Shown: positions 1 through 7,397 of the stretch, piece by piece
Layout: the number at the start of each line of letters is the position of its first letter
Numbering within the stretch: position 1 is the stretch's first letter
IMG/VR virus record: IMGVR_UViG_2534681835_000038
Location: 1-13,488 of that record
Strand: one strand, 5' to 3'
Length of the DNA: 13,488 nucleotides
Origin: a virus
Lineage: Duplodnaviria; Heunggongvirae; Uroviricota; Caudoviricetes
Notes under the pieces: model-generated
Seen by the model: only the letters and a program-made list of their open reading frames with translations
Told to the model about the DNA's origin: nothing
Databases searched by the model: none
Made by a program: the position numbers and the translations under genes

Positions 1-678
1 ACAGTGGCACGTCTCATGGCGGTTATGGGACTTGCCGGTGTTCTCCGGGGTAAAAAGGTCCGTACGACCATCAGCCGGAAAGCCGTTGCCGCAGGCGACC
101 GCGTAAACCGTCAGTTCGTGGCAGAACGACCTGACCAGCTGTGGGTGGCTGATTTTACTTACGTCAGCACATGGCAGGGCTTCGTCTATGTGGCGTTTAT
201 CATTGATGTGTTTGCCGGATACATCGTGGGGTGGCGGGTCTCATCGTCTATGGAAACGACATTCGTGCTGGATGCGCTGGAGCAGGCGTTGTGGGCCCGT
301 CGTCCGTCTGGCACCATCCATCACAGCGATAAAGGCTCTCAGTATGTGTCACTGGCCTATACGGAGCGACTAAAAGAAGCCGGATTACTGGCATCAACAG
401 GGAGTACAGGCGACTCGTATGACAACGCGATGGCTGAGAGCATCAATGGTCTTTACAAAGCGGAGGTAATACACCGTAAGAGCTGGAAAAACCGTGCAGA
501 AGTGGAACTGGCCACACTAACGTGGGTGGACTGGTATAACAATCGACGATTGCTGGGAAGGCTGGGCCATACTCCTCCGGCAGAAGCAGAAAAAGCTTAT
601 TATGCTTCCATCGGAAACGATGATCTGGCAGCCTGAGTTCACAGATAAAACACTCTCCAGGAAACCCGGGGCGGTTCA
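1..678 (+). mobile_element. IS3-family insertion sequence, right-hand portion (left part outside window); right end approximate
   Basis: Encodes the C-terminal 210 aa of an IS3-family OrfB transposase (4-636); the interrupted terminase gene on the opposite strand loses homology at about 678. Terminal inverted repeat not identified by eye, so the exact end (640-690) is uncertain. Confidence 0.8.
4..636 (+). CDS. IS3-family transposase OrfB (integrase-core / DDE domain), N-terminally truncated by window edge
   Basis: Translation has the typical IS3 OrfB core (WVADFTY...IIDVFAGYIVGW...HSDKGSQY...YDNAMAESINGLYKAEV...WYNNRR) with the D, D, E catalytic spacing. ORF runs from the first base of the window to TGA at 634-636. 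Confidence 0.9.
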   Translation: MARLMAVMGLAGVLRGKKVRTTISRKAVAAGDRVNRQFVAERPDQLWVADFTYVSTWQGFVYVAFIIDVFAGYIVGWRVSSSMETTFVLDALEQALWARRPSGTIHHSDKGSQYVSLAYTERLKEAGLLASTGSTGDSYDNAMAESINGLYKAEVIHRKSWKNRAEVELATLTWVDWYNNRRLLGRLGHTPPAEAEKAYYASIGNDDLAA

Positions 679-962
679 AGTTTTCCTTTTGACACCTCAT
701 TTTTTAACTGCTGTGTAACAGCCTGTTCTGCTGTCAGTTCCCATCTGGCAATAAGCAATTTTTCCTCATAGTCGTCTTCGCTATCGCCATCAGGCACATC
801 GTTTTTACTTCTCCTCAGATACGATATGTAAAAATCGCGCCAGGCATCCAGATCCAGTTGCCCTCGCTTATTTGATATCGGGGCACCCGGCAATTTCTGC
901 AATCTGCGAAGCTGGCGATCGGTCAGACTTAAATGCCTGGCAACTTCAGTCTGCGTAGCCAC
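639..962 (-). pseudogene. Terminase small subunit (Nu1/gp1-type, NohA-like) 5' fragment, truncated by the IS insertion
   Basis: GTG start at 962 preceded by GAGGTGAGGA. N-terminal sequence MATQTEVARHLSLTDRQLRRL and the later LIARWELTAEQA segment resemble the small terminase winged-helix region. Only about 95 aa remain before the ORF runs into IS-proximal sequence; it sits immediately downstream of cos, as in lambda. Confidence 0.7.
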
Positions 963-1002
963 TCCTCACCTCGCAAAAACTCTCACCTCACAATCACAAC
1001 AA

Positions 1003-1200
1003 AACCGGTCATGTCCGGTTTACATATCTGTTTTTTGTGCATGTCCGGTTCACAGAAGACCTGTTTTTATATTTTTCATATAGTTAACTTGAAGAGAAAC
1101 CGGACATGGTTCCCGGAAAATTTTCATAAATAGCGAAAACCCGCGAGGTCGCCGCCCCGTAACCTGTCGGATCGCCGGAAAGGACCCGCAAAATGATAAT
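1003..1200 (-). other. Cohesive-end site: cosQ/cosN (about 1125-1196) plus three copies of an 11-mer CATGTCCGGTT (putative cosB R sites)
   Basis: Reverse complement of 1125-1190 reads GCGGGTCCTTTCCGGCGATCCGACAGGTTACG|GGGCGGCGACCTCGCGGGTTTTCGCTATTTATG, matching the lambda right end / left end across cosN as I remember it (12-nt cohesive end GGGCGGCGACCT = 1146-1157). 11-mers at 1010-1020 and 1040-1050 (direct) and 1098-1108 (inverted) lie between cosN and the terminase start, where lambda has R3/R2/R1. Confidence 0.75.
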
Positions 1201-1356
1201 AATTATCATCTACATGTCACAACGTGCATCTACGCCATCAAACCACGTCAAATAATCAATTATGACGCAGGTATCGTATTAATTGATCTGCGTCAACTTA
1301 ACGTAAAAACAACTTCAGACAATACAAATCAGCGACACTGAATACGGGGCAACCTC

Positions 1357-1551
1357 ATGTCAACGAAGAACAAAACCCGCAGAACAACAACCCGCAACAT
1401 CCGCTTTCCTAACCAAATGATTGAACAAATTAACATCGCTCTTGAGCAAAAAGGGTCTGGGAATTTCTCAGCCTGGGTCATTGAAGCCTGCCGTCGGAGA
1501 CTAACGTCAGAAAAGAGAGCATATACATCAATCCAAAGTGATGATGGATGA
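1357..1551 (+). CDS. Small (64 aa) ribbon-helix-helix-like DNA-binding protein
   Basis: Basic N-terminus then RNIRFPNQMIEQINIALEQKGSGNFSAWVIEACRRRL, a strand-helix-helix pattern typical of Arc/CopG-type proteins. ATG start; weak GGGG Shine-Dalgarno. Resembles small prophage proteins found near the Nu1 homologue in E. coli cryptic prophages, but I cannot assign a name with certainty. Confidence 0.55.
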   Translation: MSTKNKTRRTTTRNIRFPNQMIEQINIALEQKGSGNFSAWVIEACRRRLTSEKRAYTSIQSDDG

Positions 1552-1738
1552 ACATCCCGGTTTCTTCCACCATCGCACCGGAAAAGCGACTATGAGGGTA
1601 ACCCTGCGTCTGTCAGCACAGTAAAACCCGGTGTGCATCGTTTTTGATTATTCCCGCACACTCACGCAGAAGGAATTCCCCGTCGGGCTACGGTCATGGT
1701 TAATGCGGGAATACGGCGACGATACAGCGCATAATGTG

Positions 1739-2287
1739 TCAGGCTTGAATACCTTTATCGAATCCCGGTAATAAAAACTGTCCCTGTCTCTCCAGACGTT
1801 CCAGCTTTGCAAGCAATTGAGGTTTTTTCGTTCTCCCCCAGCGATTGAGCAAACGGCCTGACATGCTGGCGACATCCTTCTCTTTCATGTACTCCAGCAT
1901 TACGGCGTTACGTTCTGCTTCATAACTTTCGCTGTACTTACGGAGTTCTGCTGACATCCAGTTAAACGCATTGATATAGGCTTCTTTAACAGCATCGGCT
2001 TTTGCCCCGTTAAATCCCATAACCAGCATAACGAAGCCACTAAAGTCCATGCGGTAGTAAATCTGTTTCTTGTCAAAAATCCCTAAGTCATTGATTTTCT
2101 CGACGGCCCCAAAATGGGTTGTCGAGAATTCCTCAGAACATCTCAAACATTTAATAGCCCTAATCACATGCTGATGGCGTTTACCAAATGCCCTGGCAAT
2201 CTGGAAGGTGTCAGTTACCGGTTGACCTTCTGCTGCGGTAACTAACTGGCGAAAGTCGAAGTCATGATTCGCAATTAATTCATTCAT
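1739..2287 (-). CDS. Rha-family phage regulatory protein (antirepressor-like)
   Basis: Contains the Rha signature (LVTAAEGQPVTDTFQIARAFGKRHQHVIRAIKCL). Start placed at internal ATG 2285-2287 (MNELIANHDF...) rather than the GTG at 2356 used by the ORF track, because Rha proteins normally begin just upstream of this motif. Confidence 0.75.
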   Translation of the reverse strand: MNELIANHDFDFRQLVTAAEGQPVTDTFQIARAFGKRHQHVIRAIKCLRCSEEFSTTHFGAVEKINDLGIFDKKQIYYRMDFSGFVMLVMGFNGAKADAVKEAYINAFNWMSAELRKYSESYEAERNAVMLEYMKEKDVASMSGRLLNRWGRTKKPQLLAKLERLERQGQFLLPGFDKGIQA

Positions 2288-2439
2288 GGCGTTGCCTGCT
2301 TCTTTGAAATGAACCTTTGCCGCACAGGAAACCAGCCCACCGAGGCTCGCCAGCACTAACTGGTATCCTCAAAGGCCCATTCCAAAGGGTCAGGTTCGGT
2401 GTTTATTGTGCGCTGCGGTGCGCGGTGAAATACCGGTAC

Positions 2440-2468
2440 AAAAATGCCCCGCATCTGCGAGGCATTTT
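2440..2468. terminator. Putative bidirectional intrinsic terminator between Rz and the Rha gene
   Basis: Hairpin AAAATGCC-C-CGCA-TC-TGCG-A-GGCATTTT with A-run on one side and T-run on the other; lies 38 nt downstream of the Rz stop. Confidence 0.35.
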
Positions 2469-2505
2469 CCTGAAAGTCACTTGTTAAATTTCAGTGAAAT
2501 TAAAA

Positions 2506-2943
2506 TTATTTTAAGCACTGCGTCCTGATGTATTCCTGCAGGTAGTTAACCTGCGCGGTTATCTTGTCGATTCCACCTCGGAGACGGTAATAATTGAGTT
2601 CAGCATCTGCTGTAAATCCTGGGCTTTCTCCATCGCCCATGCTGCTGGCTCCGGTCGTTGACTTTGCACAGGTGGCGGAGACTTGCAGGCGCTTACGACC
2701 AGCAGAAACATCGGCACGGAGACTTTCGATAGTCGCGTTAGCATCAGCAAGTTCCTTTGTATATCTTGCGTCGAGTTCTGCTACATCACGTTGACGCTTC
2801 TGCATATCAGCGATGATGGATGTGGCTTTATCGCGCTGCTCTTTGTAGGCGATGGCGTTATCACGGTAATGATTAACAGCCCATGACAGGCAGAGGATGA
2901 TGCAAATAACCAGAGCGGAGATAATCGCGGTTACCCTGCTCAT
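2506..2943 (-). CDS. Rz: Rz i-spanin
   Basis: Translation [36 protein letters not shown]... is near-identical at the N-terminus to lambda Rz. ATG 2941-2943 overlaps the endolysin TGA (ATGA). Start placed at MSRV, not the upstream extension in the ORF track. Confidence 0.9.
2559..2750 (-). CDS. Rz1: Rz1 o-spanin (lipoprotein) embedded in the +1 frame of Rz
   Basis: Signal peptide with lipobox VVSA|C followed by a Pro-rich mature region ([16 protein letters not shown]...), entirely inside Rz as in lambda. Confidence 0.75.
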
Positions 2944-3437
2944 TGCTGCCCCCACAAACAGACTTCACGCTCAATCTCACGACGAGTCATCAGGCCTTTC
3001 CATTGCTTACCGCCAGCGTATGTCCAGCGACGTAGCTGGTCACATGCGCCTTTGATATCGCCCTGGTTTATTTTGCGAAGAAGCGTCGATGTTCTGAAAT
3101 TACCAGCGCCCACGTTGTAAACGAACGAGTAAAGAGCGCCGCGCGTTGTTTCCGGTATATCGACTTTGATGTACGGGTTAATTTGTCTGGCGACCGTGGC
3201 AAGGTCTTTATTCAGGAGGGCTTTGCATTCTGCTTCGGTATACGTTTTACCGGGAATGATGTCTTTTCCGGTGTGTCCGTGACATACAGTCCATACGCCA
3301 ACGATATCTTCGTATGGTATGTAGCTGACACCTTCCAGGCCATCGTCACCACTCGGACCAGTGATGAGCACAGACGCTATGGCAACAGCCCCACCACCAA
3401 TAGCAGCAGCAACAGCCTTGCGTAATGATGGCGACAT
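2940..3437 (-). CDS. R: SAR endolysin (T4-lysozyme-type muramidase, phage 21 R / RrrD-like)
   Basis: N-terminal Gly/Ala-rich signal-anchor-release segment ([20 protein letters not shown]) then lysozyme core ([19 protein letters not shown]...). Closely matches the E. coli cryptic-prophage lysozymes RrrD/RrrQ as I recall them. SD AGAGGTG; start ATG overlaps the holin stop (TAATG). Confidence 0.9.
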
Positions 3438-3652
3438 TATTCACCTCTCGCAGCCTTACGCTTATCTTCTTTAATCTTGAAATAAAGGTTTGTCAGATAC
3501 GTCAGCAAGCCAAACACCAGGCTACCCAATACGCCTATTGCCACCCACTGGGATGGGGAGACTTTGTCCAGCAACTGCAGTAGCCAGTATCCCGTCCCCA
3601 CCGCTGACGTGGTGTATGACACACCTGTTGTTATTTTTTCCATCTGGTACAT
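3437..3652 (-). CDS. S: Class II holin (phage 21 S21-type pinholin), dual-start
   Basis: [71 protein letters not shown] aligns along its length with phage 21 S (MKSMDKISTG...RRKAARGE). Two in-frame Met codons (3650-3652 and 3641-3643) match the antiholin/holin dual-start arrangement. SD GGGAGA 6 nt upstream of the first ATG. The ORF-track N-terminal extension is rejected. Confidence 0.85.
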
Positions 3653-4060
3653 ACCCCGTCTCCCGTTATCCGGAAGCTGACAACAATAAAAAGCCACCAG
3701 TTAATTCCTGATGGCCCTGATGCATAAACGTCATAATACCTGACTGTTATGATTGACAATAATGATAATGTTTATATAGAAAGGTTCCCGATGTGTGTTA
3801 CATATCATTTCTCCACGGGGAATATCCCCACGCCAGCGCAGACTCTTTTACCCGTTCTCTTCTGCGCTGGCTCTTTTTTATTATGCTGCTGCATTTACCT
3901 CTGGCACCATGCTTTCTATCTCAACACAATACGTGGTACTTCTTGTAACCAATATCATAACGATTAATCGACATAGAATTTCTCCCGTGTACAGGAACAG
4001 AGTTAAAAAGCCGGAACCGGAATCAAATCACAGGATGACCATCTGCCAGTGGCAGGTCAT

Positions 4061-4087
4061 AAAAAAAAGGCCGCGCCATGCGCAGCC
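4061..4087 (-). terminator. Intrinsic terminator on the late (minus) strand between the moron and the lysis cassette (tR'-like)
   Basis: Minus strand reads GGCTGCGC-ATG-GCGCGGCC (8-bp GC-rich stem, 3-nt loop) followed by T8 (4068->4061). A second hairpin (ATGACC..TGCCA.TGGCA..GGTCAT, 4034-4060) follows immediately. Confidence 0.5.
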
Positions 4088-4272
4088 AGAACTCACAAGG
4101 AAAATGATAGAAGGAAATAACATTAGTGATGTACGCATGGCGCCTCCCGCTAAGTTCTGCAATGATCAAACAGAACTCGCTACGTGCCCTTAAAACTCGA
4201 TCATTTAGCCCCTCCAAGGAGGATTCACCATGCGGTTGATTTTTTAATAAACAGTAAACAAAAAAGTCAAGA

Positions 4273-4383
4273 ATTATTCATTCTGTTCTTTCATCATCGG
4301 CCACAGCAATACCACAATGCCGCAGACCAGAGCGCCATCAGTCAGTACCAACATTATCCTGCTGGTGAAATCCATCATCACCA
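4273..4383 (-). CDS. Possible 36-aa single-pass membrane peptide (below the ORF-track cutoff)
   Basis: MVMMDFTSRIMLVLTDGALVCGIVVLLWPMMKEQNE: one hydrophobic helix with a charged tail. No convincing Shine-Dalgarno; found by manual translation only. Confidence 0.2.
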
Positions 4384-4517
4384 TCACTAAAAGCAGGATC
4401 ACAACAGCAAGCAGACACAGTTTATAAAACAATGTTCAGAAAACGCATTCAGCATGCCTAAGGTTCTATTCCTACGAATAGCCAACTTGCAACTTAAAAT
4501 ATTATTTATGCAGCCAA

Positions 4518-5234
4518 TTAAATTCTGGTCCTTACAATATCAACCTGAAGATTCTTATCTTGTGCTGATTGATAAATGACAAACCTTTTACTACCTGCAT
4601 TGAAAGAAGTAGACAAAACCAGACAATTATCATAACGAGCAAGAACATAATACCAACCATCATTATAATTAATCATTTCATATTCTTTCTTAAACTGTGG
4701 TTTGTAATATCCTGTCAGAAATGAAAAAAGCCAGAAATATGCCACAAAAGCAATCATCACAATCTCAAAAAAATGTTTTTTTATAAATGGCTTATCATAG
4801 AAGCATGATACCGATAAAAATCGCCCATAAGATCTTATCGAAATTGTAACCGCCAGCGCAATCGCTGCTGACAGTAGCAAAAGAGGTACCTGAATCTTCT
4901 GTCTCAATATAGAAAACTCAATAATTGCCGGCACAAACAATAATTCCACAGCAAAATAAAGGCGAAATACATTTAGCTCTTGCATAGAATGTTTTCTTTT
5001 CACTGCGAAAAAGAATACAACACCAATACCCCAACCGATAAGAAATATAGCAATGACGATAACTGCAAAAAATAAACTTCTGGCAACATCATCAACACCT
5101 GCACCTACAATCCACCATGGGAAGCCGTAGTAAAAAGAAGTACCCCATCCATAGAAATAAGCACTCCCCCATCCAAGGCATCCCATGTAGGCAATAAAAA
5201 GTGAAGAACTCCTGAGCAGCGCACCATCCTTCAT
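4518..5234 (-). CDS. Polytopic inner-membrane protein of unknown function (AT-rich moron between pR' and the lysis genes)
   Basis: 238-252 aa ORF, strongly AT-rich codons, 5-6 predicted hydrophobic helices plus a roughly 50-aa hydrophilic C-terminus. Start placed at ATG 5232-5234 (MKDGALL...) preceded by GGGGTGG; longer starts at 5261 and 5276 lack an SD. No family recognised. Confidence 0.6.
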   Translation of the reverse strand: MKDGALLRSSSLFIAYMGCLGWGSAYFYGWGTSFYYGFPWWIVGAGVDDVARSLFFAVIVIAIFLIGWGIGVVFFFAVKRKHSMQELNVFRLYFAVELLFVPAIIEFSILRQKIQVPLLLLSAAIALAVTISIRSYGRFLSVSCFYDKPFIKKHFFEIVMIAFVAYFWLFSFLTGYYKPQFKKEYEMINYNDGWYYVLARYDNCLVLSTSFNAGSKRFVIYQSAQDKNLQVDIVRTRI

Positions 5235-5266
5235 AACCACCCCAATACAAGATGATAACATTGGCT

Positions 5267-5301
5267 TACAACTCATAACAAAAGCAATTCAATGCCGTCA
5301 A
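5267..5301 (-). promoter_or_regulatory. Possible sigma70 promoter for the membrane-protein gene
   Basis: Minus strand TTGACG (5296-5301), about 17-18 nt spacer, TGtTATGAG extended -10-like element (about 5270-5278), roughly 40 nt upstream of the ATG. Confidence 0.3.
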
Positions 5302-5435
5302 GAGGTTACAGGTTAAAAAAACTCTATTACATTGCAGTCAGCATGTTTACTACACAAATACAATTCAGAGCATAAAAACTACTCGGCGGCAGGTTATTGA
5401 GACTCATCAATGACATGTAAAAAACGCCCATTATT

Positions 5436-5471
5436 GGTGTCAAGTTTCCCCAAAGTTATTCAAAAAGTCAA
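5436..5471 (-). promoter_or_regulatory. pR'-like late promoter with Q-utilisation (qut) region
   Basis: Minus strand TTGACT-TTTTGAATAACTTTGGG-GAAACT-TGACACCAATAATGGG aligns almost position-for-position with lambda pR' (TTGACT-TATTGAATAAAATTGGG-TAAATT-TGACTCAACGATGGG) as I remember it. It lies 43 nt downstream of the Q stop. Confidence 0.55.
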
Positions 5472-5513
5472 TATTATGCCGTTAATATGTTGCCATCCGT
5501 GGCAATCATGGCG

Positions 5514-6137
5514 CTAACGTGTGATCGCATTCAAAATGTTGTCTGCGATTGACTCTTCCTTGTGGCATTGCACAACCAGAGCGTCATACAGCGGCTTAAC
5601 AGTGCGTGACCAGGTGGGTTGGGTAAGGTTTGGGATTAGCATCGTCACAGCGCGATATGCGGCGCTTGCTGGCATTCTTGAATAACCGACGCCTTTACAT
5701 CTTCCGCACTCTTTCTCAGCAACTATCCCCCACTGCTCTGTTTTGGCTATATCAACCGCACGGCCTGTACCGTGGCAATCTCTGCATCTTGCGCCCGGCG
5801 TAGCGGCACTACGGCAATAATCCGCATAAGCGAATGTTGCGAGCACTTGCAGTACCTTTGCCTTAGTATTTCCTTCGAGCTTTGCCACACCACGGTATTT
5901 CCCCGATACCTTGTGTGCAAATTGCATCAGATAGTTGATAGCCTTTTGTTTGTCGTTCTGGCTGAGTTCATGCTTACCGCAGAATGCAGCCATTCCGAAT
6001 CCGGCTTGTGATTGCGCCATCCCCATAGCAGCCATCACATCAGTACCAGAAAGAGAGTCAGAAGCCGTAGCCCGTGGTGAGTCGCTCATCATCGGGCTTT
6101 TTGGCGAATGAAATTTAGCTACGCTTTCGAGTCTCAT
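5514..6137 (-). CDS. Q: Late-gene antiterminator Q (lambda-type)
   Basis: 207-aa translation is essentially identical to lambda Q along its full length, including the zinc-binding CRDCHGTGR...ECGRCKGVG region. ATG overlaps the ninI stop (ATGA). Confidence 0.95.
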
Positions 6138-6798
6138 GCGCCTTCTCCCTGTACCTGAATCAATGTGAGGTTTCCGCAGAACACTGCGCCAGTATCGATA
6201 TACATCTGGTTGGCAAATTTGAGTGGTTTCACTGCTGGCGTATGACCAAAGATGAACGTGTCCGCGCCTTTGATTTCTTTCACGATCCCGTCTTGTGAGT
6301 TGCTGATTCGTTCGCGGTTCCAGATTACCTGCTGATGATCAACTGGCTTTCCAAACTCGTATTTATCACAAGGATAATCGGCGTGGCAGATGACATATTT
6401 TTTCCTTTACTCACCAGTTCGATGATTAACGGAAGTTCATCTGCTTTATGGGCAAGAGCTTTAGCCAGAATTTCTTTGTCGTAATCGAGATTAAAGAACC
6501 AGCCACCGCCATTAAGCAGCCAGTGATTGACGTTTCCACGCTCTGATAAGCCATCAATCATCATTTGCTCATGGTTTCCACGTACAGCTCTGAACCAGGG
6601 GAATGTGATTAATTCCAGGCATTCTACGTTCTCTGTACCGCGATCAACCAAATCGCCCACCGAGATAAGCAGGTCTTTTTTGGTGTCGAATCCTATCGTC
6701 TCCAGTTTTTTCATCAGGTTCGTGTAGCATCCGTGCAGATCGCCAACTACCCAAATATTTCGGTATTTGCTGCCATCAATTCTTTCGTAGATATTCAT
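6134..6798 (-). pseudogene. ninI: Ser/Thr protein phosphatase (lambda PPase / NinI) with a -1 frameshift in a homopolymer run
   Basis: Residues 1-132 ([25 protein letters not shown]...GNHEQ...[10 protein letters not shown]) match lambda phosphatase. The frame is lost at the T6 run 6398-6403 (A6 on the coding strand). The rest of the protein (YVICHADYP...[37 protein letters not shown]) is encoded intact in the -1 frame down to the TGA overlapping Q. Confidence 0.8.
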
Positions 6799-7397
6799 GC
6801 AACCTCACTTCTGCTGTTTCGCAGTTTTTTAAGTTTCTGTTGATACTCCGCCTTGATGGCCCTGCACTCTTCGACAGTCCAGCGATAGCGGTTATGGTTT
6901 GATTCGATTTCCTCTACTGCTTCCTGCCCGATGCGGCTAATCAGTTCGACGCGATACGGAACGAGATTTCCGCTTTTGTGCTGGTTGCACACCACGCATT
7001 GCTTGTGAATATTGCGTTCATCAAATCGGAGTTGAGGTGCCGCAGCAGTTGTCCGGTAATGTCCGGCATCCCACTGAGCAGACGTGAGCGTTCCGCACGA
7101 GATACATGGTAAGTCGCGGTCTCTTTCTCTGATGAAGGCGTTTACGGCTTGTTGGGCTTGTTTAATCCAGTAACTGCGGGGCTTTAAGGCGAGTTTTCGA
7201 ATCTTCAGTTTATCTTTCTGTTTCTGCTCCTCTCGTCGTAGTTTCTTCTCTGCTGCTTTTTCCGCTTTTTCGCGTTCTTTACTTCGTCGTTCGAGTGCTA
7301 TCTTGGTTCCACAAATCTCATTACACCAATATTGATTTTGATATTTTGGTATAAACCATTCATTGCAACATTTACATTTCCTTCGATAGATTCGCAT
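6795..7397 (-). CDS. ninG: NinG (Rap-like recombination protein), re-initiated with a new N-terminus
   Basis: From [23 protein letters not shown] to the C-terminus the protein is near-identical to lambda NinG. The N-terminal 25 aa ([29 protein letters not shown]) are AT-rich and diverged but keep the Cys pattern. ATG 7395-7397 has a strong SD (AAAGGAG, 7-nt spacer) located inside the 3' end of the HNH ORF. Stop overlaps the ninI start. Confidence 0.85.

Follow-up and report, generated by a model that had tools for sequence, protein, structure and literature searches.

A lambda-type cosN beside a TCCGGTT-type cosB in a decayed Escherichia coli prophage points to a further packaging specificity among lambda-like phages

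Which small terminase would read a cos site whose cutting half is that of lambda and whose repeats are not? The question is raised by a stretch of 13,488 nucleotides from a virus of the Caudoviricetes (IMG/VR virus record IMGVR_UViG_2534681835_000038, positions 1 to 13,488; hereafter the window). A preliminary description of this DNA had noted a lambda-type cosN followed by three copies of an 11-mer, CATGTCCGGTT, in front of a small-terminase gene (terS), and had proposed a mosaic packaging site that joins lambda nicking to a different small-terminase specificity. Position, architecture, conservation, concerted variation and covariation with the small-terminase protein (TerS) all support such a mosaic, and on these sequence comparisons we consider it very probable that the repeats are a cosB of lambda architecture whose recognition specificity is distinct from those of lambda, 21, N15/Monarch and Gifsy-1. 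In 2015, Feiss and colleagues listed only three packaging specificities (lambda, 21 and N15) as documented among lambda-like phages, and expected more diversity, on the grounds that resident prophages can interfere with infecting phages of their own specificity (PMC4669245). The underlying R3-I1-R2-R1 plan of cosB has been described for lambda, phi80 and 21 (PMC4669245) and for Gifsy-1 (PMC9026076), and its order is annotated in the phage 21 record. The functional, packaging orientation is the minus strand of the window, so that lambda nt p corresponds to window position 1158-p.

Read on the minus strand, the site runs from cosQ through the cohesive-end sequence, an AT-rich I2 segment, the three repeats and a Shine-Dalgarno sequence to a GTG at 962. 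Alignment of window 1160..1113 (minus strand) with lambda nt 1-45 gave 100% identity, and window 1568..1113 aligns at 96-99.6% identity with the right end and cos of lambda-like phages, lambda included; the 440 bp that precede cosN match right ends at this same level, namely those of lambda, HK629 and DE3 and of several newer phages of lambda type, and cosQ lies within the segment at lambda spacing upstream of cosN. The lambda likeness of the nick region and its flanks is therefore more extensive than had been claimed. The identity stops at nt 45 (window 1113), just before R3, and the sequences diverge from nt 46, where lambda reads TTTAAGGCGTTTCCG and the window reads GAACCATGTCCGG. Phage 21 departs from lambda at the same place, and its cosB does not align with that of the window. 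Lambda itself carries TTCCGGTT at nt 40-47 (locus L005), on the I2/R3 border and 13 bp nearer to cosN than the R3-like site, which could be a coincidence or a remnant.

Words found three or more times on either strand reach a maximum of 11 nt in the 183 bp from cosN to the start codon, and the three exact copies of CATGTCCGGTT (Table 1) are the only ones in the 13,488 bp. Exact-match searching agrees with the original account of two direct copies and one inverted copy, the first of them within a near-palindrome, in which the exact copy overlaps a one-mismatch copy, CATGACCGGTT. The repeats indeed stand in place of lambda R3, R2 and R1: they occupy the same positions, and the lambda R sequence is absent. 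R3 reportedly lies 47 ± 2 bp from the nick (as the title of a 1994 paper by Higgins and Becker has it), and the placement of the first 11-mer after cosN matches this lambda-like expectation. The R3 and R2 starts are 54 bp apart, and the terS start codon falls at lambda-equivalent nt 196, compared with 191 in lambda. Could such repeats be chance or low-complexity matches without function? A search of the window that tolerates two mismatches shows no enrichment of the pattern (6 found vs 2.9 expected); however, the three exact 11-mers lie within 100 bp, only 2 of 2000 dinucleotide-preserving shuffles produced a thrice-present word of at least 9 nt, and different genera keep the motif at a constant position, as described below, leaving chance a practically negligible explanation.

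Table 1. Features of the cos region and its surroundings in the window
Feature	Window position	Strand	Lambda-equivalent nt	Basis and remarks
cosQ, GGGTCCT (packaging-termination subsite)	1187..1181	-		Sequence; among the most conserved columns in 64 related cos regions
cosN, 12-nt cohesive-end sequence GGGCGGCGACCT	1157..1146	-	1-12	Identical to lambda; nicks placed by that identity
I2-equivalent AT-rich segment	1109..1145	-	13-49	Lambda-identical to nt 45
R3-like CATGTCCGGTT	1098..1108	-	50-60	Exact; direct in packaging direction
I1-like site TTTCATATAGTTA for integration host factor (IHF)	1074..1086	+	72-84	Between R3 and R2; 2 mismatches to WATCAANNNNTTR
R2-like CATGTCCGGTT	1040..1050	+	108-118	Exact; inverted relative to R3
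R1-like AACCGGTCATGTCCGGTT	1003..1020	.	138-155	Inverted exact copy (1010-1020, +) and direct 10/11 copy (1003-1013, -)
Truncated terS'	678..962	-		GTG start 962; 95 native codons; winged helix-turn-helix and coiled-coil start; reading frame continues into the insertion sequence to 639
Segment homologous to lambda-like right end	1113..1600	-		96-99.6% to lambda, HK629, Turner, PhiR11_1 and others
YlcI/YnfO-family gene	1357-1551	+		Annotation; within the lambda-like right-end segment
End of IS1203 (IS3 family) copy interrupting terS	1..677	.		NZ_CP077465.1 annotation; intact-prophage homology resumes from 678 (H97)

The gene that follows the repeats is annotated as a hypothetical protein only (source record/RefSeq). 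Its open reading frame (ORF; 962..639, minus strand) has 107 codons but follows its relatives only to codon 95 (window 678), diverging from the gene of phage PhiR12_1 at 677/678. A Pfam search with the 107-aa ORF gave no match to Phage_Nu1; residues 1-95 match phrog_57. The intact relatives, for example that of PhiR12_1 (host given as E. coli K-12 MG1655) and protein cluster P0002 (819 member sequences), have 169 residues, and the next gene is always a large terminase of GpA_ATPase/GpA_nuclease type. Against the Phage_Nu1 profile (PF07471, cut-off 30 bits), an intact relative scored 67.9 bits over residues 49-150, while lambda Nu1 (333.4 bits), Gifsy-1 TerS (331.5 bits, residues 1-162) and 21 gp1 (271.9 bits, residues 1-163) matched end to end and N15 gp1 scored 132.3 bits over residues 6-150; phrog_57 takes in the intact relative, lambda Nu1 and N15 gp1, each end to end (PHROGs). 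The PF07471 and phrog_57 matches together place the protein among the small terminases of the Nu1 family, with an N-terminal DNA-binding domain too diverged for the Pfam profile to match. The earlier statement that the small terminase is not Nu1-like thus holds for the N-terminal domain and fails for the C-terminal two-thirds, through which the protein belongs to that family.

Alignment resolves three N-terminal types on a common C-terminal body: lambda/21, N15 (MAVLLNKSDMASS) and a type that we call MATQ after its start (MATQxEVAxHL..T.R.LR.LQK.PGAP), in which the Nu1 profile does not match the N-terminal 48 residues and some 12 residues are lacking after the wing. The MATQ-type N-terminal domain is predicted to be a diverged MerR-like winged helix-turn-helix with the fold of lambda TerS and Rpp, and the best structural match of the predicted structure is RppC. 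The window ORF (639-962, minus strand) also matches phrog_7289 ("unknown function", 91 positions) end to end, and this family looks like truncated N-terminal fragments of the MATQ-type small terminase rather than a separate family.

The RppC match bears on one alternative, namely that the site belongs to a phage-inducible chromosomal island (PICI) and that its cosB is read by a helper-hijacking Rpp-TerS heterodimer, the more so as PICI cos sites are mosaics of the same kind, with phage-like cosQ/cosN and an unrelated cosB (PMC6739421; PMC9026076). However, the MATQ domain does not resemble Rpp in sequence, no rpp gene is present, and the neighbouring gene is a true TerS with a Nu1-type C-terminal half, followed in intact relatives by terL, portal and head genes. 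The element itself is a prophage of lambdoid type that carries int, xis, nin, Q and lysis genes, and the cosB of PICIs has been proposed to consist of R3 only, without I1, R2 and R1 (PMC9026076), whereas the complex R3-I1-R2-R1 form is present here. A PICI origin is, in our view, extremely unlikely, and the MATQ-type TerS is the candidate reader of the repeats.

If this is so, the repeats should travel with the MATQ domain, and the preliminary description had made its proposal depend on their presence at other cos sites with this terminase type. Relatives were gathered by fetching divergent loci individually and by searching with divergent queries; one early scan of viral contigs gave 80 near-identical E. 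coli loci, a scan of genome contigs gave 14 loci, few of them with a MATQ-type N-terminal domain, and many loci are prophage predictions, possibly defective themselves. TCCGGTT occurs in nearly all of 94 distinct 300-bp regions upstream of genes starting MATQxE[VI]A, compared with a chance expectation of about 0.04 per 300 bp on both strands, so that the motif does accompany this terminase type. An R3-like copy lies 80-84 bp from a cosQ-like GGTCC(T/C)(T/C) in E. coli, Klebsiella, Salmonella, Citrobacter and Enterobacter, and the same spacing is found at 33-49% protein identity in Aeromonas phage phiARM81ld, Pseudomonas phage LPPA33, metagenomic viral contigs and alphaproteobacterial genomes. 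The phiARM81ld record begins with GGGCGTTAGACC and carries the motif as GCATTTCCGGTTCCGGTTGG at nt 51-68, with terS from nt 79.

A phylogenetic footprint over 64 distinct regions of enterobacterial type peaks at cosQ, the left cosN half with I2, the R3 core, part of I1, the R2 core and the Shine-Dalgarno sequence, while the spacers and R1 are more variable. The TCCGGTT cores of R3 and R2 and the I2-equivalent TTATGAAAATTT are each at least 98% conserved, the distance between R3 and R2 is constant in enterobacterial relatives, and three relatives (L100, L101 and L103) have perfect matches to the IHF consensus at the place of I1. R1 is conserved less than R3 and R2, being absent, inverted or direct in relatives, as expected for an accessory site.

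This pattern of conservation also bears on the possibility that the repeats act as RNA or DNA hairpins, terminator- or attenuator-like, in a late transcript through cos into terS. The minus strand allows two terminator-like hairpins, one formed by the R1 palindrome (1021..1002, 7 pairs) and one by I2 paired with R3 (1116..1100), and a terminator-like consensus scan found 4 sites vs 1.1 expected in the 1.2-kb region. But I2 offers no complement to R3 in loci L102, L103 and L104, R1 has a single arm in Klebsiella loci L100 and L110, the T tails (TGTTGTGATT, TTTCTCTTCA) are poor, and R2 takes part in no hairpin yet is conserved like R3. The pairing arms vary while the motif is conserved, which speaks against hairpins, and a terminator right before the essential terminase genes would be counter-productive; we therefore judge this explanation highly improbable. 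An Rfam scan of the window found no RNA family.

The copies of the motif vary in concert, ATGTCCGGTT, ATTTCCGGTT or ACTTCCGGTT being used in both R3 and R2 of one phage. The base just before the core covaries with residue 20 of TerS: all 5 recognition-helix types with Arg20 have G before TCCGGTT (box form GTCCGGTT), and all 20 types with Asp, Asn, Ser, Thr or Lys at this residue have T (TTCCGGTT), with two stray sites, one a mutated R2 and the other a far-downstream match. The Arg20/G state arose at least twice, in an enterobacterial group and in locus L115, which has Arg20 and a G in both R3 and an intragenic copy, whereas 23 viral and 5 metagenomic loci related to it at 75-77% identity have Asn20 and a T in both. 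Residues 20 and 24 of the recognition helix are known to set specificity in lambda and 21 (PMC4669245), and in the MATQ type the predicted recognition helix probably uses residue 20 to read the base immediately 5' to the core, an Arg here pairing with G.

Distant relatives have a simpler cosB, with one R3, often as a tandem TTCCGGTTCCGG, right before terS and an inverted copy inside terS. The intragenic copy lies at +172 to +181 from the terS start, about 195-205 bp from R3 (L244, where it occupies nt 251-261, and L245, L246, L114, L115, L116 and L118).

These observations also bear on whether the repeats are operators of some other DNA-binding protein, for example a late-gene or prophage regulator such as the Rha-family neighbour. 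The identity of the binding protein is inferred here, and a Rha-family regulator gene does lie 600 bp away, at 1739-2356. The upstream genes, however, are wholly different in L100-L105, L244, L245, L012 and L017, while the motif and its distance from cosQ stay fixed; the base before the core follows residue 20 of TerS, and the simple-cosB relatives place their second copy inside terS itself. The motif stays with the TerS domain in otherwise unrelated gene neighbourhoods, and the two covary, which makes another regulator very unlikely; recognition by the MATQ-type TerS is the reading that we carry forward.

How does this proposed specificity compare with the known ones? The R box of the window, CATGTCCGGTT, and the recognition helix of its TerS both differ from those of lambda (CGTTTCC.TTCT), 21 ((C/T)(A/G)TGTCGG.(A/C)C, also written CATGTCGG.CC), N15/Monarch (GGTTGTTGT) and Gifsy-1 (CAGATCC(G/T)TTC). 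With lambda the site has in common the cosQ-cosN-I2 sequence to nt 45, the order, spacing and orientation logic of the subsites, a terS about 190 bp from the left end, the C-terminal Pfam family of TerS and the predicted fold of its DNA-binding domain; it differs in the R sequence, in the inverted exact R1 and in the diverged N-terminus of TerS. Phage 21, the classical second specificity, likewise has cosQ/cosN in common with lambda and diverges from cosB onward, and its R boxes (TTCATGTCGGGCCTT, TTCATGTCGGACCTT and ATCGTGTCGGTACTT) share with the 11-mer its first six bases, CATGTC. The likeness may be due to ancestry or to chance; the remainder of the box is GG.CC in 21 and CGGTT here, the cosB regions do not align, and 21 gp1 is a full-length classical Nu1. 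Gifsy-1 has the same R3-I1-R2-R1 plan, but a classical Nu1 TerS and its own R boxes, and for these two reasons we rejected the idea, suggested by the cosN of locus L103, that it belongs to the TCCGGTT class.

The closest parallel in organization is N15/Monarch, where a lambda-like cos is read by a strongly diverged TerS recognition domain, and where complex (R3-I1-R2-R1) and simple (R3 with an inverted copy in terS about 200 bp away) forms of cosB occur, as in the MATQ family. In N15, R3 lies at bp 48-59 and rR2 at bp 249-260 (PMC4669245), a geometry like that of the simple MATQ cosB; the TerS start and the R box of N15 are both absent here. A set of E. coli prophage loci (L109, L210-L228 and L240) has lambda-identical cosQ/cosN with GGTTGTTGT boxes in R3-I1-R2-R1 order and a TerS of the form M.FLLNKSDMASS. 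Their N-terminal type (LLNKSDMA), considered as a new third one, was rejected as such, being the N15/Monarch type: comparison with N15 (L249, nt 1-300) assigns these loci to the known specificity, which means that the lambda-type cosN of E. coli pairs with at least four cosB classes.

The converse is also seen, since Salmonella locus L103 has a cosB of the TCCGGTT class beside a Gifsy-1-type cosN (GGGCGGCAGCGT) and Citrobacter locus L104 has one beside an N15-type cosN (GGGCGGCGTCCG). Among phages of the class (L101-L105) the right half of the 12-nt cohesive end varies (GGGCGGCAGCGT, GGGCGGCGTCCG, GGGCGACGCGCT and others), while cosQ and TTATGAAAATTT are fixed. Different cosN types beside one cosB class, as in L103 and L104, indicate that cosN and cosB modules reassort independently and repeatedly.

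Several observations weigh against the specificity that we propose, or limit it. The conservation counts ignore relatedness, and most E. coli loci are near-identical; the Arg20/G covariation comes from two independent lineages only. Eight distant relatives (L014, L016, L019, L120, L121, L123, L124 and L241) have no exact TCCGGTT within 300 bp upstream, and some prophage copies lack an exact R1 or R2, so that not every repeat copy need matter. In the window, the exact R1 copy is oriented opposite to lambda R1, the lambda-type orientation being satisfied by the imperfect 10/11 copy only, and the I1-like site deviates from the IHF consensus at two positions (lambda I1, AAACATTAAGTTA, at the same place and in the same orientation, likewise has two mismatches). 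The position of cosN is taken from identity with lambda, and in the open literature we found no binding, footprinting or packaging experiment on a MATQ-type TerS or its site. Finally, the system is broken in the window, and we accordingly make no claim about present function in the host strain.

Several of the eight relatives without the exact motif have another recognition helix, such as QAVGELV or QPAVAKLL, and these relatives may represent further specificities. Among the E. coli loci, L022, L027, L030, L044, L049, L079, L081 and L096 have no exact R1 or R2, CATATCCGGTT in R2, or an indel of about 30 bp between R2 and the start codon; such variants of near-identical copies may be decayed prophages or tolerated variants.

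The preliminary description had overlooked that the terminase gene beside the repeats is interrupted. The window matches the chromosome of E. coli O111:H8 strain 8E (NZ_CP077465.1) at 100% identity, and there it belongs to a lambdoid prophage inserted in the yfaA/DUF1175-gene (yfa) region, with genes for int, xis, nin functions, Q antiterminator, holin, RrrD, a lysis protein, the Rha-family regulator and YlcI/YnfO. IS1203 cuts terS after codon 95, which keeps the DNA-binding domain and removes the TerL-binding part. Beyond the insertion sequence (L001 8268-10636) come the type III secretion system effector gene nleG, a transposase fragment, the effector gene nleA and then the chromosome; in the annotation of strain 8E, terL and the head and tail genes are absent there. 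With terS truncated and terL missing, the site cannot work with its own terminase, and what is left is an orphan relic.

No cognate terS lies nearby, and any activity of such an orphan would have to be in trans, where a superinfecting phage with a matching specificity might meet it as a substrate or a decoy. Strain 8E has a single copy of the TCCGGTT cosB, and no other cosQ/cosN was found in the 49 kb that follow in the packaging direction, a stretch of core chromosome extending from rcsC and ompC to radD, so a superinfecting phage of this class could start packaging here and could not terminate it. The Feiss group argues that packaging begun without termination yields dead particles (PMC4669245), and a decoy effect of the orphan site is possible. 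Transduction of nleG/nleA from the orphan cos was considered and is unlikely, given that there is no second cosQ/cosN in those 49 kb and no other cosB copy in the strain.

For an intact phage such as PhiR12_1, we propose that TerS dimers would use their diverged winged helix-turn-helix to bind the core TCCGGTT, occupying R3 and the inverted R2, which an IHF bend at I1 would bring together, with R1 as an accessory site. The Nu1-type C-terminal part would hold the gpA-type large terminase on the lambda-identical cosN about 50 bp away; the large terminase would nick cosN and package leftward on the window, and cosQ would serve termination. The binding, bending and nicking in this scheme, and discrimination against the lambda, 21 and N15 terminases, would be expected by analogy with the known systems.

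Part of this picture is known already, both the lambda architecture and the mosaic principle, in which cosB and the TerS domain are swapped beside a common cosQ/cosN, as in lambda versus 21 and in PICIs. What appears to be new, on the sequence comparisons above, is a further class of packaging specificity, widespread and as yet uncharacterised, of which the window holds a decayed copy. In the open literature, with two relevant subscription papers outside the scope of the search, there was no mention of a TCCGGTT R sequence, and searches with the motif string gave unrelated papers. The cosB block, which carries no annotation, was found in 1147 of 5426 complete E. coli genomes (~21%), and five phage genome records, PhiR12_1 to PhiR12_5, with the host given as E. 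coli K-12 MG1655 or E. coli C, have the same cosB and an intact gene.

We further suggest, tentatively and with somewhat more doubt than confidence, that the TCCGGTT/MATQ pair is an undocumented natural specificity, probably the commonest non-lambda one in E. coli (about one fifth of complete genomes, including prophages of enterohaemorrhagic E. coli). It would be ancient, extending to Aeromonas, Pseudomonas and alphaproteobacterial phages, with complex and simple cosB forms and a switch between Arg20-G and Asp/Asn/Ser/Thr/Lys-T, and its orphan copies would serve as decoys that abort the packaging of superinfecting phages of the same class.

The biological weight of this particular window is small, as it holds a relic beside a gene truncated by an insertion sequence. 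The class is of wider interest as a further specificity, abundant in pathogenic E. coli. It would account for a 150-bp stretch between genes that is highly conserved and unannotated in over 1100 complete E. coli genomes, and would indicate which prophages can cross-package. Its natural variants pair a recognition-helix residue with a base and so offer a directly testable code of TerS-DNA recognition; if true, the residue/base switch might be used for the rational reprogramming of cos packaging specificity.

Elsewhere in the window, at 8456-10308 (plus strand), two hypothetical genes of 328 and 275 codons lie between the ninE-family and HNH endonuclease genes, on the strand opposite to nin/Q, and are moron-like.

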